64,000 nt of DNA from positions 11,199,888-11,263,887 of the forward strand of contig NC_092676.1 in NCBI RefSeq assembly GCF_964355755.1, written 5' to 3'. The DNA is from Antedon mediterranea (taxonomy: Eukaryota; Animalia; Echinodermata). The translations under genes and the position numbers were made by a program. The notes under the pieces were generated by a model, which made no database searches, was not told where the DNA came from, and was given only the letters and a program-made list of their open reading frames with translations. Positions 1,752-63,480 of this stretch are shown one piece after another; within the stretch, counting starts at the first letter, position 1; each line of letters opens with the position of its first letter.

Positions 1752-2162
1752 GGGCTACAGTATACTATATAGGGCCTAGGCTGGCTAGCTAGCACGGCTT
1801 CATAGACGGTGACCAGGCACCACCTAAAACTAACTGTAAACATCGAGGTCGCATTTGGATATTCGAAATTGTTAACATAATTACATTAACGGTAGGTGAT
1901 TCATAAATGTTTATGAATTGTACACAAATATTAACGAAAACGAAGGCTTATTATTATTCGAAGGCTCGCTCGCTGTTGGTATTTTTTCCGTTGAATTACC
2001 GTCGTGGATTGCATGCATTGCGTGTATTATGCGTGCATTTCGTGCCTCGTTGACTCGCACTTTGGCAACACTCCCTGTCATCGTCTGGGGAAGGAATTGT
2101 GTTCCGCGGAGCACCAACCAAGGCCGTTGTGTGCGTACACGTAAGTACAGTCAGTATCAAAA

Positions 2163-28600: not shown

Positions 28601-29239
28601 CTAATTAGTGGAAGGATACCCCCTGCAAGATGACTGAGCTTACGGGAAAATATCTTCGACCACTCAACTGTGAAATGCTAATCACACCCAAGGTGAACTT
28701 ACCTGTGTGGGGCCAGTTGAAACCTTCTACCAGGACCAATGATGTTGGGTTGCAGAAAGTGCAGGCACTGTTCGTAAACTCTATGTATGCTGTGCTCCAA
28801 GCATGTCACAAGGCCTCAGGTGATTTGAAAACTACATTGACGCATGCACTGGTTATAGCGCTGACTGCAAACCGGGAGTTTAACCTGAAGCGAAGGGACA
28901 TGTTAAAACCAGACCTTAACGCACGATTTGTTGCACTCTGTGGGGTTACGACTCCCATAACCACAGAGCTCTTTGGAGATGATGTTACCAAACAGATAGA
29001 CGATCTCTTCAAATCAAACAAACTTGGCGAGAAATTATCAGGTGCTAGAAGAGGTCGGGGTCGTGGATACAACCCATATGCAGGAGCCAGACGAGTTGGT
29101 TTCCGCAGCCGAGGTGGAAGTCGCTCAGGGTTCCAGAGGTACCAGTCAAACAAGTCTTTTTTAGAAGGAAAGGGCTCCTACCAACGCAGACAGGGAGCCC
29201 GGCTGGCTGCTCAACCAAAGGGAAATCGAGAGTAGAGGT

Positions 29240-31200: not shown

Positions 31201-32050
31201 ATTTTTGTTTTCAAAGGAAAATTGATTTCTTGCACCCCGTTGTAGGAGATGTCTTAAAGTTTTTACATAACCTTTTTAAAGAAGGTCTTTCTTACTCCTC
31301 GCTTAACACGGCTAGGTCAGCGTTAGCATGTTGCTTCACTGACTATCAGGGCAGGGAGGACCGACCCCTTACACATCATGTACTAGTGTCCAAATATATG
31401 AAAGGGGTTTTTAATTGCCGGCCTCCGGCTCCAAGGTACGCAGTTACCTGGGACGCTAACATTGTTCTAGATTACTTAGCTCTAATGCAGCCATTAGATA
31501 AGTTGTCACTTAGGGATTTATCGTATAAACTAGTCATGTTGATGGCTCTAACGTCAGGGCAGAGATGCAATATGCTGGCGGGACTAGACACTAAGAGTAT
31601 GATAAAGTCGGAAAACAGCTTTGATTTTTCAATTACTGTACTTGCTAAACAGGACCGGCCCAATAAACTGTTTTCATCCCTAAGATTTAAGAAATATTCA
31701 AAACAGGAATTGTGTGTGTTTAATACTCTTGAATCATATTTGGACCGTACACAGCCACTGAGAAGCGAGTCAAAACTGTTGATCTCGTATGTTAGACCAT
31801 TTAAATCCGTTGGGGTTAGCACCATTGGCAGATGACTTAAAACACTACTGGGCCTAGCAGGAATTGATACAGCTACGTTTACTGCGCATAGTACAAAGGC
31901 AGCTAGTGCTTCTAAAGCCAGTAGGTCCATCCCGGTGGATGAAATTTTAAAACACATAGGTTGGGCCTCTGCTACTACGTTTAACAGGTATTATAATAAG
32001 CCAATTGATAATAGTAACAAAAATGCATATGATGTTGCAGTATTACAATA
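31150..32050 (+). pseudogene. DIRS #2 tyrosine recombinase (in-frame stop at about 31835)
   Basis: YSSLNTARSAL, PPAPRY, LTSGQR, AHSTKAA, IGWAS..TFNRYYNK. Confidence 0.88.
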
Positions 32051-32550: not shown

Positions 32551-35500
32551 TAGCAGGGTAACTTAGCACTTTTTTTGTGCACTTTGTGACAAAAGCACCA
32601 AATTTGGCACAAACCTTCTTTAGGGTATATCTAACAATCCTAGAAGGGGTGCCCAAAAATCGGAACAATTTAACGACGTCATTTGGACCACACCCCTTTT
32701 TTTAGTATTACGTAATTAGGTGAAAACTTAAATCTTCGTATATACATACCAAGTTTGGTATCAAATTAAAACTCATGACATGTACATTGCAATACACACA
32801 TAAAAAATATATGATTTCTCTTTCTCGGAATATATAGGTCAAATAATGTAATTTTCTGTCATATTGAAGGGGATTTCAATCAAAACGCGCCAATATTGGC
32901 CTATGTTATGAACATTGTAGTTATCAACAACATTCATTTTTGTAATAGAACAACTAATATATATTTATCCTGTACCAGTTACTTTCCTTTAACATAATAT
33001 TAGGAACCACTGAAAAAAGTATATAAAACATATACTGTATCAAACTTGGCTCAATAACCACTGGACTATTAGTAAACCGACAAAAGACCATTTGACTGAC
33101 AATTATGGCGTTAGCATCCATAACAATATATGGAGGTGATTATCAACTTTACTTTATGAAATTATTTATCTGGAAACAAACACTTATAATGGTACAGAGT
33201 TGCTAGATGACGAACAAGTTCCACGGCATGGATAACAACGACCAGTGCACTGCTGAACGGCACTTGCAGTTCCCTGAGCAAAAAGGCAACATTTTGCAGC
33301 CACACTTTAGCAATTCCCTACATGCCTTGGATGCTTCAGGTAGTATTGTCCAGACTGGTGTCCATGTACTGCCGGTTTTAGTCCAACCAAAGTCTTCTGG
33401 TGATGGAGCATTCTGCTGTGGCTGTAGACTGGTGGTCCAAATGCATGCTTGGTATATGGATCCGTTGGAATGCTGTAAAAGTGCATCCTGCAATAAACAA
33501 TTTAAAGATTGGTGTTACCTTTTAATGAAAGAAAAACATGAACCTGATAATAAATTATTAAACGACAATTGACAATTATATGGAAGCTCCCCTTACCTGT
33601 GTAGGAGGAATGTTGTCCATTGTCCGTGCCTTTCTTGAAAAAAGATCTTGTCTTAGCTTAGTAACACTTCTTAAAGTACTTGTCTTGTCGTATAGATGAC
33701 ATGTAAACTCCTCTAGCAACTGGAATTGAGATGAGTTGACTCATGGAGGTTTAATACCTCCATGGTTGACTCCTAGAGATTTGAAAGGGTGATGTGCCAT
33801 GGAAAGAAAGGCTTCGGTGACTTCTGGAAATGAGTTCCACGTCTACCATGCGGAGTGTTTTGCTTTTCCGAAGAACTGGGATGTAGTATCGGACACAGTA
33901 AATGCATGAAAAACTGGCAGCCCTCTTGACTTATCCTCTCCTAGGTTATGGCAGATAGTATTTATATTAAAATATTGGAAGTGCTTACCCATGCCAAATG
34001 CGACCCAGATACACGTACCAGGATAACAGGCTATTAGATTGCAGAAAATACCAAGCAGGATAACAATGACATCAGTATCAACTGTATACGCACCAAAATA
34101 ACCCTGCTACCTTTCTTTAAGGCATGATGAATGTGAATGCACATCCTGGAGTCGGCCTCTTCATGGTCGCATATTGACATAGGTTGAGTAGATGTCAACA
34201 TACAACAGACTCGCCTTCAGGACATATATCAAGAATTACTTACTAATTTAATATGCCTTTTTTAATTAATGGTATGAAACTGTAGGCTATAAGTAAATTA
34301 ATCGTTTGGTTACCAACAAAATAAATTAGTATGTATCATAATAAAACTTACCTAATGTAATGTAAACTTCTTTGCAGTCAGAGTAATAATGGGTAGACAC
34401 CTTTGTAGTTAAAAAGTTAAATAACTCCTCTTTATTTACTGGAATCTTTCCTCCTGATCCCTTTTCCTCTTTTTTCTCCTGTAGACTGCTTAAGACTATC
34501 TGTTCTGTAAGTGTCCCACACTATATCAATTCTGTTACTATTCTGCAGCTGCTGTCTGGTCCACGGTAGAAAGACCTATCATACAAATGATACAAGAATA
34601 ACGATCCGCATATAGAAGTGACCAATTATGTGGTGGTTAAACAATAGATACAATCCTGAATGCAAAGAAATGTACTCACCTTATCACCGTAGTCATCAAA
34701 TGTAAATGCATGGTTGCTGGAAAGAGCATGGACAATAGCAGCTCCGTCGAACACCTTTACGTCAACATATGTAGGAGGTTCAGGCTGGCCTTCAGTCTCC
34801 AAATGCTGTAGCAACTCAGACTTATTAGTTGGTAGTCGAAGCTTTCCATTTACTGCCAAAGAGGGTGGCCATGGCTGGTTTTCATGCATGAAGAAGTCTT
34901 CCAAATCTCCATCACGAGATTGACTTGCAATATACAGTCGACTGAATAGGCTGCCGTCACTTTTTAAACTCTTAACTTGTTGCTTTGTTTTGGACACTGA
35001 TTTTGACCATGGTGTGTTGAACAACGACATCTTATTCTGTTTGATGGCTTGTTGAATTGCAACACTTCTGTCGAGAATAACTTCCTTGAAATATTTTTGG
35101 TACTGGGTAGTACCTACATCCTGAATTGTACGAACTGTAACTACTGCACTTTCATTGGCACAATCTCGAGCATCCAAGACCAGAAGTTCTGAACAATTAT
35201 CGAGGAATGGGTTGCCTGCATTGCTCAGGGAACTGCAAGTGCCGTTTAGCAGGTCTTTCTTGCACTGGTCTTTGTTACCCATGCCGTGGAACTTGTTCGT
35301 CATCTAGCAACTCTGTACCATTATAAGTGTTTGTTTCCAGATAAATAATTTCATAAAAGTAAAGTTGATAATCACCTCCATGTATTGTTATGGATGCTAA
35401 CGCCATAATTGTCAGTCAAATGGCCTTTTGTCTGTTTACTTATTCCAGTGATTATTGAGCCAAGTTTGATACAGTATATGTTTTATATACTTTTTTCAGT

Positions 35501-35969
35501 GGTTCCTAATATTATGTTAAAGGAAAGTAACTGATACAGGATAAATATATATTAGTAGTTCTATTACAAAAATGAATGTTGTTGTTCTTATAACTACAAT
35601 GTTCATAACATAGCCCAAAATTGGCGCGTTTTGATTGAAATCCCCTTCAATATGACAGAAAATTACATTATTTGACCTATATATTCCGAGAAAGAGAAAT
35701 CATATATATGTGTGTATTGCAATGTACATGTCATGAGTTTTAATTTGATACCAAACTTGGTATGTATATACAAAGATTTAAGTTTTCACCTAATTACGTA
35801 ATACTAAAAAAAAGGGCATGGTCCAAATGACGTCGTTAAATTGTTCTGATTTTTGGGCACCCCTTCTAGGATTGTTAGATATACCCTAAAGAAGGTTTGT
35901 GCCAAATTTGGTGCTTTTGTCACAAAATGCACAATCTTCATAAAAAAATGGAAGTTAGCAACCCTGCTA
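32551..35969 (-). mobile_element. AcademX-like deletion derivative with inverted repeats of about 730-750 bp and a 3-bp TSD (CTG)
   Basis: TAGCAGGGT ends. CTG at 32548-32550 and 35970-35972, and the host frame TSS|ANIVE is restored. Minus-strand XPG-like remnants (FFMHEN, VFDGAAIVH, HEEADS, DTDV, FHAFT..DTTS.F.GK, PPTQDALLQH, Cys-rich tail) with GT-AG introns at 33488-33596 and 34576-34679. Confidence 0.85.
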
Positions 35970-41599: not shown

Positions 41600-43351
41600 A
41601 TTTATTAATTAGTAGAGGCCTACATGTAGAATACGTGCGTATGCGCTGCATTAAATTTTAATTACTCACAATACAAGCATCGGTGGCGTGCCATACAATT
41701 CGGCTTTTTAATCCGGCGGCCGAGATTGTCGGCGGCCGAGATGGATCTAACCCGATCAAAGCACCATTTGGACGACAATAAACTATAAAATAAATGTATG
41801 ATAAACACAATCATACATATTAATTATTATCATCAGTCTGCATCACAAGTATCTGGAATTAAATTATCCTACTACAGTAACTCTTAATCACGTGTTTGTA
41901 TTGTTTATTTCTGTTCCTTTGACGTTCAGTAATAATAAACCTACATTCTTAATACAGTATAGTAGTCTATCTCGAAAAGAAGCCCATACTATCTTGAAAA
42001 GAAGCCCAGGGGGCTTCATTTCGAAATGGGCTTCTTTTCGAGAGTACTTTTGCAAACTGTAGAGGGGGGCTTCTTTTCGAGATGGGCTTCTTTTCGAGGT
42101 TTTACGGTAGGCCTATATGTAAATCAAAGTTTTAAAAAAACTATTTAATTGATATATGTGTCCATTTTAGATAAAATGCCGGTCATCTTGGATAAAATGG
42201 CGGCCATTTTGACTTGTTCCGTTAAAAAAATGATGTTAGATGAATGAATAAGTTAGACATTTGTAAGTCTCCTGGTCCAGACAAAATAAACTCTCGAGTT
42301 TTATAGGAAACAAGTCTACAATTGGCTGATCTTTTGAAGCATTTGTTCACTAAACTGATGAAGCAAGGAGCTATCCCCCTATCTTGGGGCCTCGCAGACG
42401 TTATACCTATATTCAAAAAAGGAAATAAGTCTATACCTTTGAATTATAGACCAGTGAGCCTGACTTCACTAGTATGTAAAACTATGGAAACATTCATTAG
42501 GAATAATATAATGGATCATATGGAAAGCAACAATGTGTTTACCAAAAGTCAACATGGTTTTCGGCCAGGTAGGTTATGTAATACAGCACTACTAGAAGCG
42601 ATTAATCAGTGGACCAAATGGTTAGATGAAGGTTCGAGTTTCGATTGCGTTTTCTTGGACTTTTGATAGCGTTCCACACAAAAGATTAATTAAAAAGCTG
42701 AAAACATATGGTATATAGGAGGAAACTTTTAGTGCAGTGGATAGAGGCGTTCCTTACTAATAGATCACAAGTAGTTGTAGTCCTCAAGGAAGTGTTCTAG
42801 GACCACTGCTTTTCAACTTGTATATCAACGACCTTCCTTATCAAATTGATTTCGAGATAACAATTTTTGCAGATGACACCAAGATTTTTAGACAAATAAA
42901 TAATTTAGATGATGCCAAAAAGTTACAAGATGACATTGACAAGCTGTTTAAATGGTCTATAAAATGGCAACTACCGTTTAACTTAGAAAAATGTAGTGTC
43001 ATGCATTTTGGTAGGAAGATCATTAAATTTCAATACAAGATGGGCTATGCATAAAACAAGAAACTACTACAATGGGTCTCCAAAATGACAGATCTCGGGG
43101 TCGTAATTGATGATAACTTAACTTTCGAATCACATGTTTCTCAAGTTGCTATGAAAGCGAACCAAAAGCTGGGAATCATAAATACGTCTTTTAATTATTT
43201 ATCCTGTCACTCCTTATCTCTTCTGTATAAATCGATTGTAAGACCATCCATGGAATATTGCAGTACTGTTTAGCTGCATGCTTTTTTTAAAGGAATCTGA
43301 TAAGTTGGAAAAGGTTCAACAGCGTGCATCAAGAATGATAACAGATTTACG

Positions 43352-46300
43352 CAATAGGGTTGGTGAACATCAGTCCAAAATACGCAGAATTTTTTCCAAA
43401 ATACGTCAAGTTGAGGGCGCTATACTAATCCAAAATACGCGAGTCTTTCCAAAATACGTCAAGTTGAGGGCGCTTTTCATTTTCCAAAATACGCGAATTG
43501 TCCAAAATACGTCAACTTGAGGGCGCTATTCATTTTCCAAAATACGCGATTTGTCCAAAATAAGTCAAATTTTGGGGTGCTAGTAACTTTCCAAAATACG
43601 TCAACTTGAGGGCGCTATTTATTTTCATAAATACGCAATTTCTCCAAAATAATTTTTGGGGCACTTGTTCCAAAATACCTCATACCTAGGCTACTATTAA
43701 TTTTCTAAAAATAGGAAAATTATCCAACTTAAAACAACTTTTGTAGCGCTATTAATTTTCTACAATAGAAAGTTATCCGACATACCCCCCAACTTGAAGA
43801 CACAGTTTTCTCAAATACGCGAATTTTCCACAAAATATTCGAACCTTCAAAACGCGAGGCTGTTTTCAAAAATACTATAAAGGATTGTATCTTCAACATT
43901 GAAAAGGAGAACCATTTTGGTAAGTTTTAAGTTCAGTTTGTATCATATAAGATATCGATAATACAGTAGGTACGGTCTTGTAGTAGTCTCATTGGCTATA
44001 ATATATATCAATATTTGTTGTATGTTAGGCCTATATCTATATTGTCCCAAAAAGCAATAGCTTAAGTATACGTGTAGGCATATAGTTTAATTGGTATACT
44101 TAACTACCTTAGTAGGACAATGCAAGTTATGTTATTTTGTAATAAATGAATGAAATAATAAAAAGAAACAAGAATAAAAATACTCTAGATGATTATACTA
44201 GGTTATATCATTTGGTAGTGGTGGTCCTGTAGCCATACATTTTTTTTCTGAAAACAACCAAAGTTATACAAAGTTTTCAACCTACAAAAATACGATAACC
44301 AGTTACTATTTTTGATGAAAATATTTTCTCAAATCAACTAAATTACGTTGTGATAATAATTGAAATAAATTAAAATCATACATACGATATAACGATTTCA
44401 TTTTGAATCATTTAAAATTTTATAAAATCAGTTTCATCTAAGGCAGTATAAATGCTTGTAATAGTTCTAGGATACACATTTTTTCAATACATTTTTGTTT
44501 TCTGTATAAATATATAAGTTTATTTATTGTCGACGATGTCGCCCACAGTTAATAGCATTCAACATAAGTATACCACAACTGACCAGTTGCTCTAACCACG
44601 CACGATACGTAGCCTCCCAGGAATAAAGTTGATATAACCTCATGACCTTTTCCATCGTAAAATAGTTACAAGTGGCAGTTTTAAGCGATTTTTGACAGCA
44701 TTATTAATCAGCCCCTAAAATGTGCAGACAACTTAGGATGAAGCAAATGTATATGAATATCAATTTCAATTCATTGGTGGGTAGATGTTTGATTTTAGTG
44801 GTATAGGGCGAGAGAGTCCTCGTAAATTGAGGCTGAGGTGAGAGACCTTTTAGATGAACCTTTAGTTGGTCGGAAATCACTCACAAAATCACAAAAATAA
44901 AAAGAATAAATATTCAAATGTTTCAAACAGCATTTAATATACCTGTCGATGTACAGTAAAAAATCTATAATTTTATTGAAATTTAAAATGGTATAATTAA
45001 GCCTATGACTGATTTTGACTCCTGAAAATTTAATTGGTGGGGAGGGTACAATCCCGCCGTTCATTCTCAAGGCTGCACAATTTTTCATGGTACCCATAAC
45101 CAGGGCTTTGTATCTGCCCGCCCCAATCCATGTAATTCTAGATAGAACCAGGTAAAATGAAACAAAAATAAATTAGCCTATTGCATTCATTATTATTATT
45201 ATATTATCATATTATATATTATTATGTTTATGTCTTCTTTCCTAATGTAATTATTTGTTTGTATTTTTAAAGGATACTGTCAATACATATCGACACATCG
45301 ATTCCTAAGTATAATGTTTAATAGGCAAACCAAGATGAAGATGTAACAAAGGTATGCTACAAGATATAATAATATGTGTGCAATGCATCGTTTTATCGAG
45401 TTAATAAAAACTAGATTTATTTATGGTACTGTATCTAGATTTCTCCAGTATAGGAATATTCACATGTATCTATCAAAAACCTAACCCTTAGCCTAACCTT
45501 ACTTGGTACAGACTCCAAATGTGATACACACTACTGAGAAGAATCGGGTAAAATAAGTATTAATACTAACTTATTTTCCTTAATTTCAGAGTTTGTTGCT
45601 GTTTAATTAAAGAAGATTTTACATAAAGTACCACTCTGAGAATTTCTAGCAGAGAGACAAACACAACTGTATATAACTATATATATATATAGGTTTTAGA
45701 AAAAAATGAAGTGCCCATATTGTCAAAAAACCTGGTCAAACAACTCTGAATTAAAAAGACACATTTCTTGTCACGAAAAACGATCGGTATTTATCCCAGC
45801 CACAAACAAATTAGCACAAGTACATGTGCTTGCTTGTAAATGTGAGGAATATTTGTATAAATGTGAGGATAGGTACCATTACCATTGTCCACATTGTAAA
45901 CTAATAATACGAAGGAAGAATGAAGTTATTCCGCACATAAACTCACATCATGATAATAATGCTGAAGTTCCAAGTACTCCAAAAGACGCACAAGCTATCA
46001 AACAGGACAAACGGAAAGCCATCGATGACGAGGGAAAGCTTAATAAACGACCCAGATTTCAGCCAGGTGTATGTGTTGACATGGTAGAGGGTATTTTTCT
46101 TGTGAGGAAATGCATGCATGGTGGTGTGGCATATCCATGCCATGTTCAGAAGTGTAACATAAACAGCAAGATATCTATGTGTGAAGTATCAGAATGCCGC
46201 ATAGTGATGGATGTTGCTAACAACAGTGGTATTCCGGTGTATGAGTGCTCTCATTTACAAGAAGCATCCAGGGTTTCGTATGGCACGTTTACTGGTCTTG

Positions 46301-49300
46301 AAGAACATGTACTTACAAGTCTGTCCGAAGATGGATCTTACAAGATGTTTAGCAAGACAACGACAGAGCGATGTACTGTTCTTCGGGATGCTGCTTTAAT
46401 TGGTGGAAAAGTTCCAGTGGCCTATTATAGAGATGGTCGATACACCCATCTATCAGTTTATGATGGTGAAACCGGATATTACAAAAGGTTTAAGAGAGTT
46501 GCGTGCACATTTGATGCAAAGACGAATAATATATCTTGTGGTTGCTGCAAACTCAAGTTTACTTGTGTTCATAAGGCCATGTGTTTTTGGCGCATGGTCC
46601 AAGACAACATTATCCCAAAAGCAACACCAATCAAGAACGTAAATGACCAGGAAAGCGAAAAGAACGACAATTGTAAAAAAATGGATCTAGGAGTGAAGAC
46701 AACACCGAAAGATTCAGTTGCTAAAGATACGGTATTATATATATACACTAATAAACAAATTCCAGAACCATTCAATCAGTTTCTCCCAGAAAATAATGAC
46801 TGGCCAACTGAATTAATACCATCTGAAAATATTTGTCATAAATGCAATGCCAAATTGGGGCAACCTATACGTATTCTAAGGAAGTCTAGTCTGCTTACAA
46901 TGACAGGAACGCACTTTGTACAAGTATATGTAAAGAAATGCACTGAGTGTAAATTAACAACCTATTATAAGGAACATCAACAAGGTGTCTTCAACTTTAA
47001 CGACTCATTTATTCTTGGTTTTGACGTTTGTGCCTGGTTGAGAGCGGGAGTAAATCATCATGTAGCAATAGGGAGTGTTGTAAAACAGATAAAAGACATT
47101 CTTTCAATTGATCTTGACGAACATCTTGTTATCAACGCTTACCTAGCATTTGAAGCCTTAACAGAAAAAGAACATCCAATGAATTGTGTCGTGTGTGGCT
47201 ATTATCCTACTATTATAATCATGGACGTTGATCGAAAAATACATTTTAGAATTCCAGTTTCAGATCTTCGTAGACCACAACATGATGATCATATTAACGA
47301 GACAGTAGATTGTGAGACCTTTTACAGAAAGGTGGATCTCCACATAATTTCACGAGGCCTCATAAATGTAGCACACGAGAATCCATTTCCTATAGAGGTG
47401 AGCTTTGATAACTGGGCACCCTACATGGGAGAACATACAAGAGGATCAATTGAGCTATTTAATACTGAAATAAGGAAAGTAACATCGGATGGAAGTCTAT
47501 CTAGCGATTGCCGGGAGATGAGCGAAGAACGTCTGCTTGAGATGTTAACACAGTCTAACCTGAAAGAGGTTAAAAAAATTGCAAAGATTCTAAATTTGAA
47601 AAAAAAAGGAGCAAAAATTGACATTATTTGCGCAATAAGAGAGTCATTAGCAAAAAACTCTGAAAATTTTAACAAAGTTATGAAGAAAGTATGGGGATGT
47701 TCAGGAGGAATTTTGACCGCTCACTGTCCCCACGGAATTATCTATGGTTTCAAATATATCGTTAAAGCAGAGAGCCCACGAGACTATGTTGACATTATTC
47801 GGTCTATGAAACACAAGCCCAACATAGTTGTAGTGGATATGTCCCATATTGTTGTAAAATTTGCAAACAATTTCCACTACACTGATCAAACAGACCCAGT
47901 TTTTTTTCCAAATGATGGTAGATTGGCTGAGCCGACAAAAGAAAACATTGATCTTGCAAAGTCCAATAATCTTCAGGTACCCATGACATGGCTTAACTCC
48001 TCGTCGAAAGTGTTTGACAAAGGTCATCCTGTAACCGGAAGAAACGAGACCTTTGCACTGTTTGACAAGTTTCACGAGAAAAATGCTAAGGGTGCAGAAG
48101 AAATAATCAGGAGAGTTGATTTGGTTCCACAATTAAAGGGGATACTTAACACACAAGTCGCTGAACAGTTTTATTCAGATCTCAACAAATCCAAGCATTT
48201 CCTCAACTCAATGTCGATTCCAAACCACATATTTACAGCAAGGATGATCATTGACATGTCAAACCAAGTTCTCAACAGAAAACACATTAAAAAAATTCAG
48301 AAATCAGTAAACGTTCAAGTAACAAGTGACCTCATTGGTAGGATTAAAATGACTATTGGTTGTGCTGATGCAAGAAATATACACCATATCCCAGACGATG
48401 ATGCATCATGTTCTTCCCACAAATTCACAGACGTACCAACATTAATCCCAAAGGCAACTAACCCAGCCTCAGATTGGTGGATAAAAGATCTTGGTTTGAA
48501 ATTGGAAGACAGGAATCGGATTGCGCAATGGGGTTCCGAATTAAACGATCGCGTAATAAATGCTGCCAGTTCTGTACTTAAAGACAACTTTCCAGATAAG
48601 CTTGGACAGCTACATAACATTGTGTGTCACTTCCTTGCAACTGAGAATGACGAGATCGTCTTAGTCAGAGAACGAGTTCAACAACAGTCTGGAAATAATA
48701 CATGTGGTTTCTATGCAATAGCATTTGCAAGTGCCATATGCGACGGTCTAAACCCCAGTTTATTACAATTCAATACAGATGAAGCAACGATAAGAGAAAC
48801 TCTCATAAAAGGTATGGAAGAAAGAAACTTAAGGAAGTTTATGAGGACAGGTTACAATATCGTTACCAAAGAGAGTGTTAAATATGATGATTCATGGAAA
48901 GTAAGTGTTGTTTGCAGTTGTCGTATGCCACCAGATGAAGATACCACCATGTGTTCATTGTGTGGTAAGCATTTACACAGGAAATGCATACAGAATAAGG
49001 CTGCTGGATGGTGCGATGAATGCGCCATCAAAAGAAGAAGAGAAGAGGAAGAGCGACAAAGGAAACCAGAAGAAATGAATCAAAAGGTGAGAGAACAAAT
49101 ATCATCCAAGAGTCCACACAAACTCCTTGAAGAAATCCATCATCTATACTCAACCATAAACGGTCTAGTATACTTCGGAAAACTTCCAAATCCAGATGGC
49201 CATGTATTCATCCATGAATTAACACGAGATATATGCGTACATAGATGCTTTGGCCAGACTTTGTTTTTGGGCAAGTCGTCCAGCTTTATAGTACTGGACC

Positions 49301-51143
49301 CAGGAGTAAATAAATGTCTCAAAGATTACTACGAGACACTCATACACGAAATGGGGCATATGTATATTTTCAGTGTTAATGTAAATGAGCAGCCTCATGG
49401 ACCAAAGTTTACAAGCCAGGTTAAGAAGTCTGTTTCCATTTTAAACAAGCACAGGAATTCACTACCAGGGCAATTTAAAGATATGATTGCAAATAAAGAC
49501 AAGGTAGCTAAAGCAAAAACATCCTCAAGTAGTATTATCTAGTTAAAAAGAATGTTTAGACATTGTGTCGGGCCAATTTAGAGCGTTTACTTTTCATAAA
49601 AATTTAAGATAATTATTATAGTTCTATTTGAGTATCATAATAATGTTACATTTTAGCATCACAGGCATAGAATAACTCAAAACCGCCCGGTGATATACTG
49701 AAATTTAATTAATTAATCTGAAACGATAACGACGAGGAAATCTGTGAGAATAAGAAAAAGTCATTAGACCACTGGGGCTTTCATTGGATTAGTTCAAACT
49801 CGATTGGATAGCGACTCTTTATATTATCGGCGTTGTACGGCGGAAAAGCACTAGTCCCTTAATTGTACGCACGCGCACCAGGATCAAATTGATACGCCCT
49901 CATCTTATATATATAATTATATATATATATATATATATATATTTATTTCGAAAAATAACTCCAAACTAGTCACCTCATTTTTCCCCTTCTCGTATTAATC
50001 ATTTCATTTCAGGTATTTTTTAACAATAAAACACCCTAAAGTAAATGTAATCATATGTATATAATATACATATACATATATATATATATATATATTTTGC
50101 CGTTTTTGCGTAAAAAACAATTACTTACTACTTATATAACCAAATATTAATATTATTTGAAAAGTTTTAACAATAATGGTTTTTAATTATTACTTACTTT
50201 TCATAAGGATTGAAGATGATATTATAGTTCAGTTTGAGGATCATAACAATGTTATATTTAGATCTCTCTCACTCAACCGAACCATTTTGAACTTTAACTA
50301 ACTGTTTTAACTATGGGTATTTTGCCGACGTTTTCGTGTAAAAAATAATTACTTTAATTTTTCCAACCAATTATTGATATTATTTTAATTACAATACCAT
50401 ATGCTTTTTAATTATATAAAATATGAAATAACTATTATGTTAAGTTTTCAGATTAGGTAACTTGTATTAGACCATAAGTACATTAAATTGAAAGCGATGT
50501 TGGTCTGTCGAGCTCGGAAAAAATATCAATTTTGTAGATCACCAAATATATAACACATACCTATGACTATACTTGTACATGCTGTTTTTGTAGCCGGTTT
50601 ATGCCTCATTTAAACAAGCTACGTCTGGCAATGAAATCGTACATCGTTCAGACATTATTAATGTATATTATAGGCACTGTCTATTGACTGATGTTAGCAC
50701 ATATTTGTTTTTATTCAGTAATAAATAATAATTGGCTACTCTATGGCATTTTATTTACAAAAAAATCTGCCTTCCAATAATTTCATTTATAACTAAAATG
50801 TCCTTGTTTGTTTTAGTCTAAGAAACTTTTTTTTATTACATTAAACTCTCAATATGATATGGTATTTTGGAAGAAAGTTTGCCGCCCTCAAGTTGACGTA
50901 TTTTGGAAAATTACTAGCAGTCTCAAATTGACGTATTTTGGACAAATCGCGTATTTTGGAAAATGAATAGCGCCCTCAATTTGACGTATTTTGGACAATC
51001 ACGTATTTTGGAAAATGAAAAGCGCCCTCAAGTCTACGTATTTTGGAAAGACTCGCGTATTTTGGATTAGTATAGCGCCCTCAACTTGACGTATTTTGGA
51101 AAAAATTCTGCGTATTTTGGACTGATGTTCACCAACCCGACCC
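43352..51143 (+). mobile_element. Zisupton (KDZ superfamily) DNA transposon, 7.8 kb, apparently complete
   Basis: 8-bp TSD GATTTACG at 43344-43351 and 51144-51151. The TIR (from 43357 and 51138) is identical for about 100 bp and similar for about 260 bp, and is built of CCAAAATACG/TTGAGGGCGC repeats. One large ORF. Confidence 0.9.
45706..49542 (+). CDS. Zisupton/KDZ transposase, 1278 aa: 2x C2H2, SWIM, CxC, SAP, KDZ core, partial Ulp1-like, PHD, SprT-like metalloprotease
   Basis: CPYC..H..H; CGCCKLKFTCVH (SWIM); CHKC..CTEC; CVVCGYYP..MD; EVKKIAKILNL...GAKIDII (SAP); GGILTAHCPHGIIYGFK..ESPRD, DKFH, NTQVAEQ (KDZ/HMGXB3-like); QQQSGNNTCGFYAIAF; CSC..C..C..H..C..C..C; TLIHEMGH..PHGPKF. Confidence 0.88.
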   Translation: MKCPYCQKTWSNNSELKRHISCHEKRSVFIPATNKLAQVHVLACKCEEYLYKCEDRYHYHCPHCKLIIRRKNEVIPHINSHHDNNAEVPSTPKDAQAIKQDKRKAIDDEGKLNKRPRFQPGVCVDMVEGIFLVRKCMHGGVAYPCHVQKCNINSKISMCEVSECRIVMDVANNSGIPVYECSHLQEASRVSYGTFTGLEEHVLTSLSEDGSYKMFSKTTTERCTVLRDAALIGGKVPVAYYRDGRYTHLSVYDGETGYYKRFKRVACTFDAKTNNISCGCCKLKFTCVHKAMCFWRMVQDNIIPKATPIKNVNDQESEKNDNCKKMDLGVKTTPKDSVAKDTVLYIYTNKQIPEPFNQFLPENNDWPTELIPSENICHKCNAKLGQPIRILRKSSLLTMTGTHFVQVYVKKCTECKLTTYYKEHQQGVFNFNDSFILGFDVCAWLRAGVNHHVAIGSVVKQIKDILSIDLDEHLVINAYLAFEALTEKEHPMNCVVCGYYPTIIIMDVDRKIHFRIPVSDLRRPQHDDHINETVDCETFYRKVDLHIISRGLINVAHENPFPIEVSFDNWAPYMGEHTRGSIELFNTEIRKVTSDGSLSSDCREMSEERLLEMLTQSNLKEVKKIAKILNLKKKGAKIDIICAIRESLAKNSENFNKVMKKVWGCSGGILTAHCPHGIIYGFKYIVKAESPRDYVDIIRSMKHKPNIVVVDMSHIVVKFANNFHYTDQTDPVFFPNDGRLAEPTKENIDLAKSNNLQVPMTWLNSSSKVFDKGHPVTGRNETFALFDKFHEKNAKGAEEIIRRVDLVPQLKGILNTQVAEQFYSDLNKSKHFLNSMSIPNHIFTARMIIDMSNQVLNRKHIKKIQKSVNVQVTSDLIGRIKMTIGCADARNIHHIPDDDASCSSHKFTDVPTLIPKATNPASDWWIKDLGLKLEDRNRIAQWGSELNDRVINAASSVLKDNFPDKLGQLHNIVCHFLATENDEIVLVRERVQQQSGNNTCGFYAIAFASAICDGLNPSLLQFNTDEATIRETLIKGMEERNLRKFMRTGYNIVTKESVKYDDSWKVSVVCSCRMPPDEDTTMCSLCGKHLHRKCIQNKAAGWCDECAIKRRREEEERQRKPEEMNQKVREQISSKSPHKLLEEIHHLYSTINGLVYFGKLPNPDGHVFIHELTRDICVHRCFGQTLFLGKSSSFIVLDPGVNKCLKDYYETLIHEMGHMYIFSVNVNEQPHGPKFTSQVKKSVSILNKHRNSLPGQFKDMIANKDKVAKAKTSSSSII

Positions 51144-51780
51144 GATTTACGTCAGCTTTTCAAAATGCACCTTCCTACTCTAGAATACAGAAGATTGAGA
51201 CCCGCAATGATTGAAGTATTAAAAATGTTCTACGGTTTTATTAAATGTAACAATGAGGATTTTTTAGGTTAAACATCGAATCTAGAACCAGAGGACACTT
51301 TTTGAAAATTAGTAAACCTCGTACTCATTCAAGGATCCGGCAGAAATGTTTTACCAACTCTGTTATCAACAAATTGAACAACTTTCCTCAGGATGTAATA
51401 GAAGCTGCAAATGTTAATCAATTTAAAAACCGATTAGAAAAGTTTTGGAAACACCACCCACTAAAGTTTTTCCCACATGATAGGACATGTAATAGAATAT
51501 ACCAGAGGGACACACAAGCATTGCTTTAGATGTCCAAGATCAAGGTAAATTCAAGGTAAATAATAGAAGATGAATTCCATATAAATTATTCCACCTTTTT
51601 CTATCTGAGAGTGTGAATAAAGTTATTCTTTATTCCTTGTTGGTTATTCCTTGTTGGTTGTTATTTGTTATTATTATTATTATTATTATTAAGCTTTGAG
51701 TGCAATTCTGCCTATTGCTTTACTTTACTCCAACAATATATTTGTACTGTATTAATAAACATTTAATTTCAGTTATGATA

Positions 51781-53050: not shown

Positions 53051-56000
53051 TGTTGTATACTAAAGATGTTTGTGGATTACAATTGATTGTTTATAGACCT
53101 CATGACTTAAACACAGTGTAAACAATCGTCCATTTTGTAAATCAGTATTATTTCAACATAGGTGGCGCTATACTAATATTTAGGAGTATCTGAGAATACT
53201 ATAGCTATACATAATACATTACAATTCTCCCAGAAATAATTTAAAGGTGGGTTAAACATTTGGGCGTGTGAACAATATGAGTTAAAGTTATTTGTAAGAA
53301 TCTTTTTTCTGTTTTATATTTTTTTATATATATTTTTTTTTTTTTTTAAAGTTTTATAATACGATATATACAAAAGAACATTCAATAATTGTATGCTATA
53401 ATACAAACATATTTAAAATTATGAATCTGTAAAGTGAATATATCTTAAGGTCCCTTAATAATGATAATTGATAGTGAACAGTTTAGTGTTCATCCATTAC
53501 ATATATATTGTTGTACAAGGTGAAAGAGAATAATTGAGATTTATATATGAATTAAAAATCAATGTTCAGTTCAAAAGTCTTGTGTATTTTATTGGAAGAC
53601 AATGAGTTCATTATATTTCAGCTATAAGCCTTTTAGGGCTTTTGACCACTCTCTTGGATCGTCTTGGTATTTTAGCATTCATGATTTCTTTATTTACTGC
53701 TTCTTCGCTTTGCTGATTGTTTGCAATTGAAGGTGGTGTTTCCTTTGTTGGTGTTGGTGTCGCTTCCGGTATGTACTGTGGTGTCAATGTCGGTGAGGTG
53801 ATTTCTGTAGTTTTCAATAGCGTTTCGCGCAATTGTTCGACATGTCTATTCCACAGTCCTCCTTGTTGTGTTTTCACTTCGTATGACAGTGGGCCATTTA
53901 CTGCTATAATTTCAGCTGTTACCCATTTATCCTCATTTCTGTAATCTCTAGCTAACACTTTTTGTCCAATTTTGAATTCACGTTGTTTTCCTGGGTTTAC
54001 TCTTTGCTTGTTTTGATTCTCGAACACTTTCCGCTTTAGATCAGGTTTAATTAGGTCAAGTCTTGTTCTCAAATTTCTATTTAGGAATAACTGTGCTGGA
54101 CTTACACCGGTTGTAGCATGTAGTGAATTCCTGTAGTGTACTAAGAAATTGTCTAACTTTAGCTGTTTACTTCCTTTGTCCAGTTTTGCCGTTTTCAAGG
54201 CATTTTTAAATGTTTGGACTATGCGCTCTGCGAGACCATTAGTCGCAGGATGATAAGGTGCAGAAGTAATGTGAGTGATACCATTGCTTTTCAAGAACAT
54301 TTCGAACTCACTTGACTTAAATTGCGGTCCGTTGTCTGACACAAGTATCTTGCATAGGCCGTATCGTGCGAATAGACTTCTCAGCATGGTAATGGTTTTA
54401 CTCGAAGAGGTATCTCTAGTCGCTAATACTTCTGGCCATTTGGAGTGCGCGTCTACAACTACTAAGTACATAATGCCGTCGATAGGACCTGCGTAATCGA
54501 TATGGATGCGGTCGTATACGTTTTCAGGCCACTCCCACGGGTGTAATGGTGCTTTTGGTGGCTCTTTCATGTTAAGTTGCCAACCTGGACATGCTTTCGC
54601 TAATGTCTCAATATCGTGGTCCATTCTGGGCCACCAACAGTAGCTTCTCGCGATAGATTTCATTTTTACTACCCCGAGATGTCCCTGGTGGAGTTCGTCG
54701 CTTACTTCTTTTTGTAGCTTGGGAGGAATAATTATTCGGTTCCCCCATAATAAACATTCATAGATTAGATTTAATTCGTCCTTTCTACGGTAAAATGCTT
54801 CAAGTTCGTCGTCTCGTTGGCTGGGCCAATCGTTTTTCGTGTACTCTAGTACTCTAGATAATATTGGATCACGTCTGGTATGTTCCTTAATTTGTTTAAA
54901 CGTGACAGGCAGTGCTTCAAAGCAATCCGCGTAAAATAACTCTATGTCGTCAGGTTTGTTTGACTTTTCGCTTTGCATGTGTAGTGGTAGTCTCGACAAT
55001 GCGTCAGCATTCATGTTATCTGCGCTTGGACGGTAGACGATTTCATAGTCAAATCCTGAAAGAAAAATTGCTTGTCGCGTTAACCTGGCTGCTGCCGTAG
55101 CTGGAATTGCTTTCGTTGGGCTAAACAGTCTTGTGAGTGGTTGGTTATCGGTTAACAATGTGAACTTTCTTCCTAACAGGTATGCTGTAAATTTCTTTAC
55201 TCCATAAACGATACCTAGTGCTTCTTTGTCTATTTGCGAGTAATTCTTTTCCGCAATTGTAAGGCTTCTCGAAGCAAATGCTATTGGGCGTTCTTCACCG
55301 TTTACGACGTGTGATAATACGGCACCAAGACCGTATGGGGATGCATCAGTTGCTAATCTCACAGGTAGCTTTGGATCGTAGTGCGCGAGTACACACTCTT
55401 CCGCTATCATGTTTTTTACTTTAACAGATGCTTTCCATTCGCTAGACCATTTCCATTTTTTTTCTTTCTGTAGTAGCTGATGTAATGGGTAGAGAGTAGA
55501 TGACAAGTTGGGTAAGAAACGATGGTAATAATTGATTAAACCAATAAACGATCGTAGCGTTGATACGTCTGTGGGTGCTGGGGCATTTACCACCGCGTCA
55601 ATCTTGTCCAACGACTTATGAAGACCTTGTTTGTCTATCACATGACCTAAGAAGGTTACCTTTGTTTTCAGAAATTGACATTTGTTCTTATTCAGAATTA
55701 GACCACTTTCCTTTAGTCTTTCTAAAACTTGTTTTAGGCGCTCCAAATGAACGTCGTCATTTTGACCAGTTATAATCATATCATCTAGTATGCAGGCAAC
55801 TCCTGGGATACCTTGGAGTACTTGCTCCATAATCCGCTGCCATATGCCGGTCGCTGGGGTTATACCGTAGGGTAGTCTATTTACCTGGTATAGCCCTTTT
55901 TGTGTGTTAATGGTGAGTATTCGTTTTGCTTCCTCACTCATTTCCAAGTGTAAGTATGCGTTTTTTAGGTCTAACTTTGAGAATTTCTCTCCTCCAGCTA

Positions 56001-57787
56001 GTGTTGCAAATATGTCCTCAATTTTTGGCATTGGGTGTTTGTCAGGTTTTATTGCCGGGTTGACAGTGACCTTGTAGTCACCACATAATCTAATAGACTT
56101 ATCAGGTTTTACAATGGGAACTATAGGTGTAGCCCATTCGCTGAATTTGATCTGTGTGATAATGCCTTCTTTCTCGAGTCTGTCGAGTTCCTTGTCTACT
56201 GCTGGTCGCAGTGCGTAAGGTACTTCCCTGCTTTTGCAGAATTTTGGTGTAGCGTTCTCTTCCATGTGAAGGTTTGCTTTTTGTCCTTTCAGTAGACCCA
56301 CTCTTCCTGAAAAGAGTTCAGCGTATGTTTCTATCAGCTGAGTAACTTTTGTATGAGCTTGGCTGTTTGTATTTACGTTGAAGATTTCATGCCATGGCAG
56401 CTTAATCTTGTTCAACCACGCTCTTCCAAATAATGGAGGTCCACCATTTTCTACAATAAACAATTTGCTATCTACTGTTTGTCCATTGTAACTCACGTGA
56501 GCATTACAAGCACCAATGCATGTGATTGGTTCGCCGGAGTATGTTTTGAATTTTTCTAGAACCGTATCTAACCTCGTGTTCGGGAAATACTTGCGAAAAT
56601 CATTGTGGTTCATAATTGAGTAAGTAGCACCAGTGTCTAGCTCCATATTTACTTTCACTCCGTTTATGTATGGTTGGATCCAAATTGGAGTCGTATCAGA
56701 TTCAATATTGTCAATTGTCACTGTAATTTGATCGAGTCCCTTTAATTCAACGTCATCGTCCGACTCTCCCTCGACATTGTGAAATTGTTTAAATTTATGA
56801 CGGTTCGTACCTTTGTATGCAGGTTTCGCCTTTGAACCCGCTTGACTTTTCTTCTTTTTGAAGCAAGCTTTTTCAATGTGACCTTTGCCCTTACAGAAAT
56901 TGCATATCGTGTCGATAAATTTGCATTTGTCAGATCGGTGCGTGTTGCTATCGCATCGGTGGCATATTGACTTAGGCTTAGTGTGCTGTGCTTTGTAAGT
57001 TTTGCGTGCGACGTAATCAGTGCTGGCGGTTGGTTTACCACTTATTTCTGTGGCGTCTTTTTGAGCAGATTCCATTCCTAAGGCTAACTCGGTTGCTTTT
57101 GTAAGTGTTAAGTTGCTTTCTGTTAGGAGGCGTTTTTGTATGGCTGTTGACTGCAATCCTACAACTAGTTTATCCCTGATGGATTCGCTTAGCTTGTCAC
57201 CGAAATCACAGTGTTTAGTCAGATGCCGGAGTTCAGCTAGAAAGTCCTTAATTGACTCTCCTGGTTTCTGATTTCGTTTGTAAAATCGGAACCTCTCCGC
57301 TATAACTAAAGGCTTGGGTGAGTAATGCGTGTTTAGTAAATCGCATAGCTCTTTAAACGTTTTGGTTTTTGGTAATTCTGGTGTGCATAGGTCTTTTAAC
57401 AGGCCATATGTTTTGGGTCCTATCACTGTCAGTAGTGTTGCTACCCGTTTATCATCCGCTATACCATTAGCGTCAACATAGGATTCCAGTCTTTCCGCAT
57501 ATGCGGTCCAATCTCCCGAATCGCCTTCGTAAACTTCTATGTTTACAAAATTGTAGGCATTTTTGGTTATAATTGTTCTATAACGTTACCTTATTTTAAT
57601 CTTCGTCGCCAATTTGTTGTATACTAAAGATGTTTGTGGATTACAATTGATTGTTTATAGACCTCATGACTTAAACACAGTGTAAACAATCGTCCATTTT
57701 GTAAATCAGTTTTATTTCAACATAGGTGGCGCTATACTAATATTTAGGAGTATCTGAGAATACTATAGCTATACATAATACATTACA
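53051..57787 (-). mobile_element. Ty3/Gypsy (Mag-like) LTR retrotransposon, recent insertion
   Basis: 173-bp TG...CA LTRs at 53051-53223 and 57615-57787 with 1 mismatch. 5-bp TSD TGGAC. PBS TGGCGACGAAGAT (tRNA-Ser-like). Short purine-rich tract GGGAGAA. Confidence 0.96.
53611..57560 (-). CDS. Gypsy gag-pol (CCHC zinc knuckles, protease, RT, RNase H, integrase); the natural ATG at about 57560 is out of frame
   Basis: Two CCHC-type knuckles, LDTGA, ILDD, DASPYG, H-H-C zinc motif, IHIDYAGP, SDNGPQF, NGLAER. Confidence 0.93.
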
Positions 57788-60290: not shown

Positions 60291-63200
60291 CATATTCAAA
60301 TTCAAATATTCTTTATTCATCATCAATCATGAAAATATACAACAATATATGAGAACATAAAAAAAAAAGATGAAAAGGAAACACATAAAAACTCAAAAGA
60401 GCTTGATTAATTGTGTCCTCCTACATCCCTAACTAGCCTAAAAACTAAAACATAAATAATAAAAAAAGCTAAATCCTGCAACAAGTATTATTTTAAAATT
60501 ATTTGTAAAATGATAATAAATGTTCTTTAAACAATGATTTAAATATAAATATTGATTTGGTACTTTGTAGTTCATAATTCAAGTCATTCCACAATTTAGG
60601 TCCCACACATGACACAGTAAAACTAGTAGAAGTACGATTACGTTTTCTGAGTCTCATTTTGTCTTTAGATCTTGTATTATAATAATGGTAAGAACCATTT
60701 TTAATAAAGAGCGATGAAAAACGCACGTCCTGATTAGTAGTAACATTATACATGAAAAGCCCAATTTGGTACCTATTGATATCCGCAATTTTAAGAAGTT
60801 TAAATTTATAGAAACATTCAGTCATTGAATCATTAAACTTTGACTATGTTATAGCTCGTAATGCCCTTTTCTGGAGTTTAAATAAATCATCTAGATAACT
60901 TGGAAATGTACTACACCATATTATGTTGCAATAATTTAATACTGGTTCAATGAGTGATTTGTATATTGTCCAGAGAGCATAGGTTGGTAAAAAATGTTTT
61001 ACTTTATATAGTATGCCTACATATCGAGATATTTTCCTAGCTGTAACATTGATGTGATTTTTATATGTGAGAAATTCATCAATATGTACTCCAAGAAATT
61101 TAGTCGATTTAACTCTATCTATTCTTTTATTGTTGACATAAATATTTACATTCTCTAATTTACTTGGATTTCGCTGATTGCGGAAAATTACGTAATTAGT
61201 TTTTTTAACGTTGATTGATAGTTTATTGCACATGAACCAATCCGAAACATTTTTTAGTTCACTATTAACTAGATATATGAGCGTATCCAAGTTTTTGTGA
61301 GATGCAGATATGTTTGTGTCGTCAGCAAATAAAACAAAAGATAACGAGTTTGAGCAATTAAATACATCGTTAATGTACAAAATAAAAAGTAGAGGCCCCA
61401 GAATTGAACCCTGTGGTACACCGCAATTTATATCCATCAAACACGAACTTGTGTTATCAATAGACGTAAATTGTTTCCTTTCACTAATATAGTTTCTAAA
61501 CCATTTAAGTGCCGTACCTCTTATGCCTTAGTGTTCCAATTTTTTTAGAAGTATATCATGGTTGATGGTGTCAAACGCTTTTGACAAATCAATAAATATA
61601 CCGATGGTATTTTTTTTCTTATCAAGCGCATCGGTTATTCGTTCAACCAGATCTATAACGGCCATAAAAGTAGAACTGTTTTTTCTGAAACCATATTGTG
61701 CATTATTAAGGATGTTAAACTTTGTGATATAATTATTCACTCTAATTTGAACAATTTTTTAAAGAATTTTTGAAGCGGTAGGCAGAATAGAGATTGGCCT
61801 ATAATTACTGACGTCACTTTTATTGCCAGATTTAAAAATTGGAACTACTCTAGCTACTTTCATACTATCAGGGACCATGCCTGTCTCAAGAGAGAGGTTA
61901 AAGATATGTACAAGAGGAGATGCCACAGCAGCAATAATATGTTTTAGAATGCGATTACTTAAGTTATCAACACCTTCTGAATTTGAATTTTTGATTTGAA
62001 TAACTATTTCAATAACCTCTTCTTCATTCGTAGGATTGAAAAATATAGATTGGGATTGACTCTCTTTCATATATTGTTTAAAGTCAGAATTGTTTACATT
62101 TGGTATTTTGTTTGCTAATTCATTTCCAATGTTGGAGAAGAAGTCATTAAAAGCGTCAGACATACCTTTTGGATCACATACCAAAGTTTTATTACTATGG
62201 TTAATTACCTCGTTTGGCCTAACACTCGATTTTTTTCTATTTAGAACTTCATTTAAAACTTTCCATGTTTGCTTTGAATCGTGTCGAGCCGCATCCAGTT
62301 TTTTGGAATAATATTGTTTTTTCCGAATTCTAATTAAATGAGTTAATTTGTTTTTATACTTTTTATATATTTGTTTTAATAATTGTGTTGGGTTTTTAAG
62401 GTATTTTTTATAAAGTTTATTTTTCTTTTTTATTGAAATCAAAATTCCTGTTGTGATCCATGGGTTTTTCTTTGTATTACCATTTGGCTTATTACTTTTT
62501 TTAGGTATGTTATTATCTATGAGATTGGATAGTTTTTTTAATAAATAGGTTATATGATGTATTGGTATCTGTGCATAAATATAGTTCACCCCAAACCTCA
62601 TTAGAAATAGCAATAAGCAAGTTATTTAATGTTGTATCATTAATTATTTTTTGTTTTGTAATTGGAGCTTGTGTGTTAGTATTTAATGACAGGTGTGTTG
62701 TCATGAAAATGGGCAGATGATCGGTCTCCACAATGCGAAATGTTATCATCATTTGTAATAATATTATCTAAAATTGTAGCAGAAGACGATGTTATTCTGG
62801 TGGGTAAGTTAATTAATGGATTAAAAGATGTTGAGTAAATAATGTTTGTGAATTCCTGTGTTGTTTTTTGAATGTCATATTTTAATAAGTCTTGATTAAA
62901 ATCTCCTAAGATATAGCAGTTTTTGTTTTCGCGATTAAGTTTATGTAAGATTTCTTCCAGATCAGAGTTAAATGAGTTGACGTTTGAATTTGGTGGTCGA
63001 TACAACATACCTACAATAGTATTTTTGCCGTTTGTGTTTATTATTTCTAGAAAAATTGAATCAATGGAGTTATCATTAAATACAAAATCATTACGTGTTA
63101 AGGTGTTGATTTGTTCTTTTAAATATAGACAAACTCCACCACCGACTCTACCTTCTCTATTACAGGTGTACATATTGTATCCATTGATATTTAATAAGTC

Positions 63201-63480
63201 AATTGGCCTGTTCTTATTTATCCAGGTTTCCGAGAAACCAAGTACATCAAACGCACGACCTATGGTATCTAACAGAATGCTAATTTCGTCGGAAGTGTTT
63301 TGGAAGACTACGTGCATTCATGTGTAACGTTGTAAAGATACCATTGTTATCAATTTCCGTCTGTAGCTCATTAAGTTGTGTTGGAGTGAAATATTTGCAT
63401 AAACCAGCCTCGTCACTTTCAAAGCAATCTATGGAATGTGTAGGACTCAATTTATTTTCATATTGAGTCGTGCTCATAAA
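60290..63480 (-). mobile_element. Crack/CR1-group LINE ORF2 with several frameshifts and stops, intronic to TRMT2B
   Basis: HMNARSL, FSETW, YRPP, GDFN, NYRPISIL, FIDLSKAFD, GVPQGSILGP, FADDT. (TTTGAA)n tail near 60295. Confidence 0.9.

Follow-up and report, generated by a model that had tools for sequence, protein, structure and literature searches.

A SprT-family (Spartan-like) metalloprotease domain fused to a Zisupton-type transposase in Antedon mediterranea: an apparently undescribed combination

Zisupton transposons are known to capture accessory protease domains. In the literature (cited by PMC number throughout), they are described as elements with inverted repeats and an 8-bp target duplication (PMC12730594) and with a canonical structure comprising a CxC4 domain, a SWIM motif and a transposase (PMC11343200), and the platyfish element, on which the CxC7 domain was defined, carries an F-box (PMC12062965). 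Here we analyze a stretch of 64,000 nt from the echinoderm Antedon mediterranea (contig NC_092676.1, positions 11,199,888 to 11,263,887 of the forward strand; hereafter "the window", in whose numbering all coordinates are given, on the plus strand unless stated otherwise), which contains a Zisupton-type (CxC4/SWIM) transposon of 7,792 bp (43352-51143). The element has in common with Zisupton the 8-bp duplication, the inverted repeats, the layout of CxC4, putative SWIM motif and transposase, and the SAP and Ulp1 domains, with an F-box present in some of its relatives. It differs in that the protein, encoded in a single open frame, ends in a PHD finger followed by a SprT-like domain, lacks CxC7 and is not matched by PF18758, the KDZ model of Pfam, and in that the outer 5 bp of the element ends are unpaired.

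The closest described relatives of the terminal domain are proteases of the SprT family. In SPRTN the protease core is followed by a zinc-binding subdomain and then by the SHP, PIP and UBZ regions; the active site is shielded by the zinc-binding subdomain, which also binds unpaired DNA and which Wss1 lacks, and the enzyme cuts many DNA-bound proteins without sequence preference, acts on proteins beside nicks, gaps and recessed ends, and cleaves itself on DNA (PMC9240642). GCNA/ACRC and Wss1 share the zincin core with three zinc-binding histidines, and in GCNA/ACRC a disordered N-terminal region, a zinc finger as well as an HMG box are found around the SprT domain (PMC13092972). SprT-like domains also occur in selfish elements, with a patchy distribution like the one reported below, in jumbo phages, abalone herpesviruses and baculoviruses (PMC7824862, PMC5552708); in jumbo phages they have been read as directed at host proteins (PMC7824862). 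These viral genes provide a precedent for the use of the domain by selfish elements. Unlike the protein from the window, the viral SprT-like proteins are not described as transposase fusions in the accessible text of these papers (PMC7824862, PMC5552708).

The transposase open reading frame (ORF; 45706..49542) is a single open frame of 1,278 aa, at the end of which lies the SprT-like zinc metalloprotease domain with a basic tail (49117..49539; H1214, E1215, H1218, H1231). The segment YSTINGLVYFGKLP begins at aa 1148 (49147), the HEMGH motif occupies aa 1214-1218 (49345-49359) and PHGPKF starts at aa 1230, all located where a preliminary description of the window, made from the sequence alone, had placed them. 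When the last 214 aa were shuffled 100,000 times, the HExxH...HGxxF pattern turned up twice. The Pfam SprT-like model (PF10263) matched the whole protein with 30.8 bits (E-value 2.8e-7) and gave a second score of 33.8 bits, in both cases against a cut-off of 25.6; the SprT domains of the relatives scored 18-25 bits, i.e. under the cut-off. The best sequence match of the whole transposase in the PDB was human SPRTN, and a search with aa 1125-1268 returned only two PDB matches at E <=10, both of them human SPRTN (E-values 4.8e-5 and 4.4e-4). H1214, E1215, H1218 and H1231 align with their counterparts in SPRTN and are invariant in the relatives. In the model of the protein tail, built from four sequences (mean predicted local distance difference test, pLDDT, of 61, with 80-93 in the active-site helices), VIA comparison ranked SPRTN first (Z 8.2, root-mean-square deviation 3.1, 104 residues aligned), followed by other zincins, namely YbeY, minigluzincins and Wss1 (Z 6.0 and 5.3). 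The proposal of a SprT-like metalloprotease made in the preliminary description is thus borne out by the profile score, by the sequence and fold matches and by the intact motif, and we classify the domain as a predicted SprT-family zincin with an intact active-site motif, which is likely to be an active protease.

Foldseek at E <=0.001 found no match for either the tail model or the core model, NCBIfam reported for the SprT domain only HExxH matches below the cut-off, and PHROGs had no match for the window domain, with the relatives matching two families weakly. None of 140 pattern matches in viral contigs was confirmed as encoding a relative of the SprT part. An ESM Atlas query with residues 870-1097 of a relative, P0003, retrieved SprT-labelled clusters with scores of 0.76-0.77, which, being below 0.9, we regard as a lead only.

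Compared with SPRTN, to which it is nearest by sequence and fold and with which it shares HExxH and the third histidine in HGxxF, the window domain lacks the zinc-binding subdomain, PIP, SHP and the UBZ region and is placed at the end of a transposase. The 49 aa from PHGPKF to the C-terminus contain no cysteine and 10 basic versus 2 acidic residues, and they include a C-terminal LP motif of their own, common to other transposon copies. The three zinc-binding histidines are also those of GCNA/ACRC and Wss1, but the disordered region, zinc finger and HMG box of the GCNA type are missing, and Wss1, which resembles the window domain in the absence of the zinc subdomain, matches by fold only and less well (Z 6.0). 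That this architecture stems from a faulty assembly or gene model was rejected: a single open frame lies inside the inverted repeats, one contig of run X1 covers the protein from the core to SprT, and at the related metagenome locus L001 a single frame of 1,520 aa encodes the fusion.

How widely the fusion occurs was analyzed by several searches. Among 166 relatives found with the transposase core (18 plus the best 150 of 1,759, many of them fragments), the SprT motif is present in two, P0003 from the sea cucumber Apostichopus japonicus and P0044; a search with the tail added P0167 as a third bearer. In the cluster of P0167 (41 members), 7 of the 15 listed members possess the motif and the other 8 are fragments no longer than 424 aa. 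When longer proteins ending in Ulp1-PHD-SprT were sought with a profile, P0003 alone was returned among 6,736 candidates. From 223 metagenome loci found with the tail profile, a query that favours SprT bearers, 80 were kept, of which four encode SprT; the transposase core is present in three, all with SprT, and the fourth SprT locus (L023) is cut off inside Ulp1. Among the loci found with this biased query, SprT was thus seen only alongside this core. The remaining 76 carry Ulp1, mostly with PHD, and four of them that were examined revealed an integrase domain in one case and a SWIM finger in two; since the Ulp1-PHD pair is found with integrase and SWIM proteins at other loci, it appears to be common to several transposon groups. 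Such a cassette sits on unrelated transposon proteins at L003, L013, L025, L038 and others of these loci, which suggests that it has been exchanged between superfamilies.

The SprT domains of the window protein, P0003 and the P0044/P0167 pair exhibit 21-25% identity (42% for one pair), and all four proteins agree in the three His, in the Glu, and in both G and F of HGxxF. In the three pairwise comparisons of the metagenome loci L001, L002 and L032, the ratio of non-synonymous to synonymous substitution rates (dN/dS) of the SprT domain is 0.23, 0.25 and 0.24 (p <=1.7e-4), compared with 0.12-0.24 for Ulp1, 0.18-0.62 for the core and 0.43-0.61 for the linker next to it. Stops are present in both L002 and L032. 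L001 (positions 689-5248) encodes a fully open relative of 1,520 aa with the core, an intact Ulp1 triad, PHD and SprT; no terminal inverted repeats were seen on its contig. The fusion is therefore retained elsewhere, a point that the preliminary description had proposed to check, and, judging from these comparisons, it is conserved and under purifying selection in the relatives.

Closer to the window copy, contigs of run X1 (organism A) differ from it at 12 places over ~4 kb, the 11 listed coding differences comprising 6 non-synonymous and 5 synonymous ones. In organism A (X1 and X3, one sample) the SprT frame is open; in organism B it is frameshifted twice in a copy decayed along its whole length. 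Run X8 (putative RNA) does not cover SprT and has no bearing on expression. The few differences from X1, together with the loss of 62 codons from the window copy (see below), indicate that the family is young and that the window copy has begun to drift; the youth of the family, claimed earlier, agrees with these contigs and with the perfect target duplication.

The SprT domain sits in a tail whose composition varies across the family. A tree of 98 core sequences includes 43 rows with a tail of at least 250 aa or a SprT domain, and our own profiles identified among them Ulp1 in 19, PHD in 14 and SprT in 7, two of these last being labelled by hand. The SprT bearers split over three separate branches. 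An exclusive clade of SprT bearers was rejected by the approximately unbiased (AU) test when three truncated proteins were counted as SprT-negative (p-AU 0.0006), but not after leaving out those proteins and one long branch (p 0.07). In five SprT bearers 167-173 aa follow the PHD finger and end with the LP motif in common. The constant length and the shared motif suggest that SprT was captured once and that the capture may have been followed by loss or exchange.

A Pfam scan of 27 relatives, picked mainly for their long tails, detected USP domains in five (P0019, P0060, P0098, P0110 and P0139), Ulp1 in ten, Josephin in two, one of them weakly (P0123 being a carrier), and an F-box in one (P0069, with a weak match also in P0006). 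In the sister branch of the P0044/P0167 group (support 90/83), the F-box lies immediately C-terminal to PHD. Thus, SprT is an accessory, optional module in a modular tail slot. Transposases with a Josephin domain may not have been described before either. As side observations, tail domains of the USP, Josephin, F-box or Myb/SANT types are scattered across P0019, P0060, P0098, P0110, P0139, P0123, P0107, P0069, P0006 and P0091, and P0001, P0002 and P0006 show, by eye, an apparent second Ulp1-like domain at the N-terminus.

The SprT domain is preceded by an Ulp1/SENP-like (C48) protease domain, located between the core and the PHD finger (48475..48830; alignment; VIA match to SENP1, Z 8.2), which was overlooked in the earlier list of domains together with the deletion it has suffered. 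In the window copy an in-frame deletion of 186 nt (62 codons) at 48607 removes the segment that in the alignment corresponds to the catalytic His and Asp of the relatives, and the Gln and Cys1000 are retained. The His-Asp-Cys triad is consequently incomplete in the window copy and present in P0003, P0044 and P0167. The possibility that the 186-nt gap reflects an intron was rejected, because the relatives encode the catalytic segment at that place. Contigs of runs X1 (organism A), X5 and X7 (both organism B) have 186 extra bases at 48607, an observation that concerns length only; since they retain the length, the loss of the 62 codons is particular to the window copy.

The PHD finger (48913..49023) has all eight zinc ligands (Cys4-His-Cys3) and degenerate aromatic positions. 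The window protein matches the Pfam PHD model with an E-value of 0.7 only, and a profile of the PHD fingers of four relatives matches the PHD of PHF2 with an E-value of 2.2e-9. The identification of a PHD finger in the preliminary description therefore stands as regards the zinc ligands, with the reservation of the weak Pfam match and the degenerate aromatics. In the window finger, Val and His replace the Tyr and Trp of three relatives and of PHF2-type fingers, and no difference from the window was listed at these positions in run X1. We take the Tyr before the first Cys and the Trp before the His to be the positions of the aromatic cage for H3K4me3. The idea that the window copy cuts proteins at sites read by its PHD finger, put forward in the same description, does not agree with these replacements. 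A charged helical linker (49024..49116; predicted helix, model residues 183-212) joins the PHD finger to SprT.

The N-terminal part of the protein contains two C2H2-like zinc fingers (45709..45955), which show weak CTCF matches and conservation in the alignment, with Pfam zf-C2H2 E-values of 0.01-0.03, under the cut-off. They are followed by a CxC...CxH motif (46537..46572), which we presume to be a SWIM finger; it is visible in the sequence and conserved in the relatives, and the Pfam SWIM model gives no match to it at E <=0.5. The CxC4 domain (46792..47052), N-terminal to the core, was identified confidently (PF18717, E-value 7.9e-9, 35.9 bits versus a cut-off of 26.9). The RNase H-like DDE transposase core (47158..48330), supported by a predicted structure, VIA matches and conserved residues, was modelled from 69 sequences with pLDDT 91 and a predicted template modelling score (pTM) of 0.90. 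VIA matched it to ISCth4, Tn5, TnsB and integrases with Z 6-7.5, and most rows reported for it were DDE transposases, integrases or SAP domains. In the core alignment D507 is kept in 49 of 57 rows, D711 in 64 of 68 and E820 in 63 of 69, and we infer that these residues form the catalytic triad. A SAP domain is inserted in the core (47509..47697; VIA matches to SAP domains of FAN1, Z 8.0, root-mean-square deviation 3.0, 61 residues aligned, and of PIAS; Pfam SAP in relatives). The core is 33-43% identical to fish and invertebrate proteins; relatives are annotated as "HMG domain-containing protein 3".

The ends of the element are well defined. The left target site duplication (GATTTACG, 43344..43351) and the right one (51144..51151) match perfectly over 8 bp. 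The host site is a long interspersed nuclear element (LINE), presumably CR1-like, whose frame is restored by excising the transposon in silico (ITDLR then QLFK). The terminal inverted repeats (43352..43640, and on the minus strand 50860..51143) extend over ~250-290 bp in all as 53-bp subrepeats and are perfect over 103 bp from 43357. At the extreme ends 5 bp are unpaired (CAATA at 43352-43356 versus GGGTC at 51139-51143), so that the perfect duplication and a perfect repeat of about 100 bp reported earlier are both found, but the repeat does not reach the very end; the asymmetry could be a family trait of these transposon ends. Between 43650 and 45705, ~2 kb of non-coding element DNA precede the ORF, in which a donor-like splice site near 43918 and acceptor-like sites near 45588 and 45699 were spotted by eye. 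Upstream exons of the transposase gene are possible.

As to the classification, PF18758 matched neither the window transposase nor any of 43 relatives scanned (16 and 27). Since the relatives without a match include fish proteins, this branch seems to fall outside the coverage of the model. The Pfam scan of the window transposase did not detect CxC7 either, which excludes Zisupton in the narrow, platyfish sense, and because both matches are absent we file the element as Zisupton-type in the broad sense. The Zisupton/KDZ label given to it before is upheld in this broad sense by CxC4, the DDE core with its SAP insert and the 8-bp duplication. The element is a young Zisupton-type DDE cut-and-paste DNA transposon.

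What the SprT domain may be for can be approached from its surroundings. From the sequence comparisons, it may well cut host chromatin or silencing proteins at the element ends or at the target site, a reading that we hold at slightly less than even confidence. The transposase would carry SprT, a protease of loose specificity, to DNA, with the zinc fingers, the SAP domain and the basic tail providing the DNA tethering that would replace the zinc subdomain of SPRTN, and with host proteins present there as its substrates. The tail would constitute a swappable kit against host ubiquitin and SUMO control, whose Ulp1, USP and Josephin modules would take off marks and whose F-box and SprT modules would destroy proteins; in the window copy the Ulp1 part is broken and SprT is intact. 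Our preference for host proteins rests on the optional nature of the slot and on the other domains found in it, which act on the control of host proteins. Several observations weigh against this. The fold match (Z 8.2) is modest, as the model is of low depth and Z of 7-8 is common by chance, and the transposon SprT has no zinc-binding subdomain, which SPRTN requires to be fully active. Four of the 7 SprT rows are near-copies of one family, and the purifying selection is seen in one group of relatives, outside the window's own family, in which the copy of organism B differs from the window by 10 non-synonymous and 4 synonymous changes, a near-neutral share. The window PHD finger is devoid of two aromatic residues found in the relatives, and the loss makes histone-mark targeting by this copy doubtful. 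Finally, no DNA-bound protein is nearer to the domain than the transposase that bears it, and self-cleavage therefore fits the anatomy equally well.

That SprT cuts the transposase, whether dismantling the stable post-integration complex for repair of the 8-nt gaps or shortening the life of the transposase through self-cleavage triggered by DNA, seems to us rather unlikely. Nicks, gaps and recessed ends are left behind when a DDE element integrates with an 8-bp duplication, and complexes of the MuA/Tn5 type, to whose DDE fold the core is related, need active disassembly. SprT is fused in cis at the fixed distance from PHD noted above for five proteins. Because SPRTN acts beside such nicks, gaps and recessed ends and cleaves itself on DNA (PMC9240642), the transposase can be considered as a substrate. 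However, SprT is present in only 7 of the 43 long-tailed relatives, so that a disassembly step, the leading suggestion of the preliminary description, cannot depend on it family-wide; moreover, the subdomain that senses gapped DNA in SPRTN is absent, an F-box takes the place of SprT in the sister branch, and the other cargo, deubiquitinases and SUMO proteases, points to a conflict with host control. A composite scenario, in which a transposase-borne, DNA-activated protease would digest the transpososome after integration (the equivalent of ClpX for Mu), the SUMO protease would delay host SUMO-directed removal and sister lineages would use the F-box to call the proteasome, appears a shade less probable still. 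We consider it improbable that SprT is a second processor of SUMO or ubiquitin conjugates beside Ulp1, protecting the transposase as proposed for yeast Wss1. Wss1 is linked to SUMO conjugates, lacks the zinc subdomain like the window domain and matches its model (Z 6.0 and 5.3), SprT is always preceded by the Ulp1-PHD cassette, and the alternative cargo domains are isopeptidases; yet both sequence and fold are nearer to SPRTN, no SUMO- or ubiquitin-binding motif was identified, and Ulp1 already does that job in the intact relatives. Least of all do we expect SprT to be passive cargo or a non-catalytic binding module hitch-hiking with the transposase: many branches have lost it or have another domain in its stead, and the copy in organism B is broken there, but that copy is decayed over its whole length, and catalytic residues invariant at ~75% divergence with a dN/dS of ~0.24 do not fit a passive passenger.

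The window contains other mobile elements. A Gypsy-like long terminal repeat (LTR) retrotransposon (53051-57787), whose direct repeats agree to 99%, has a minus-strand open pol frame of 1,324 aa. Two retroelements with a tyrosine recombinase and overlapping frames (2145-6010 and 28609-31835) are, as we presume from their motifs, DIRS-like. At 32575-35934, inverted repeats of several hundred bases with ~97% identity flank a transposase-like fragment, and LINE ORF2 sequences, one of them open for 988 aa, are located at 10532-13498, 17506-20186 and 60844-63317.

No description of a Zisupton, KDZ or other transposase fused to SprT was found in the literature searched, whose scope did not extend to Bohne et al. 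2012, Iyer et al. 2014, Repbase and Dfam, which may list such a domain; SprT is absent from the searched text of PMC12062965 and PMC9297572. The architecture is visible, without remark, in the precomputed Pfam entry of P0003. Within this scope the result agrees with the preliminary description, which knew of no SprT fusion in this superfamily, and what we report is a protease fusion that is real and conserved, has apparently not been described, and belongs to a known group of transposons. It touches two open questions, namely what removes eukaryotic DDE transposases from DNA once integration is over and by what means DNA transposons defend themselves against SUMO- and ubiquitin-based silencing. 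Both become testable through a single point mutation in an intact element that carries a Spartan-family protease in cis. A SprT protease naturally devoid of the zinc subdomain would also be useful for asking what activates the SprT family. For the transposon family itself, the swaps at one position (SprT, F-box or nothing), together with the wider set of Ulp1, USP and Josephin domains, show it sampling the protein-turnover machinery of its hosts.

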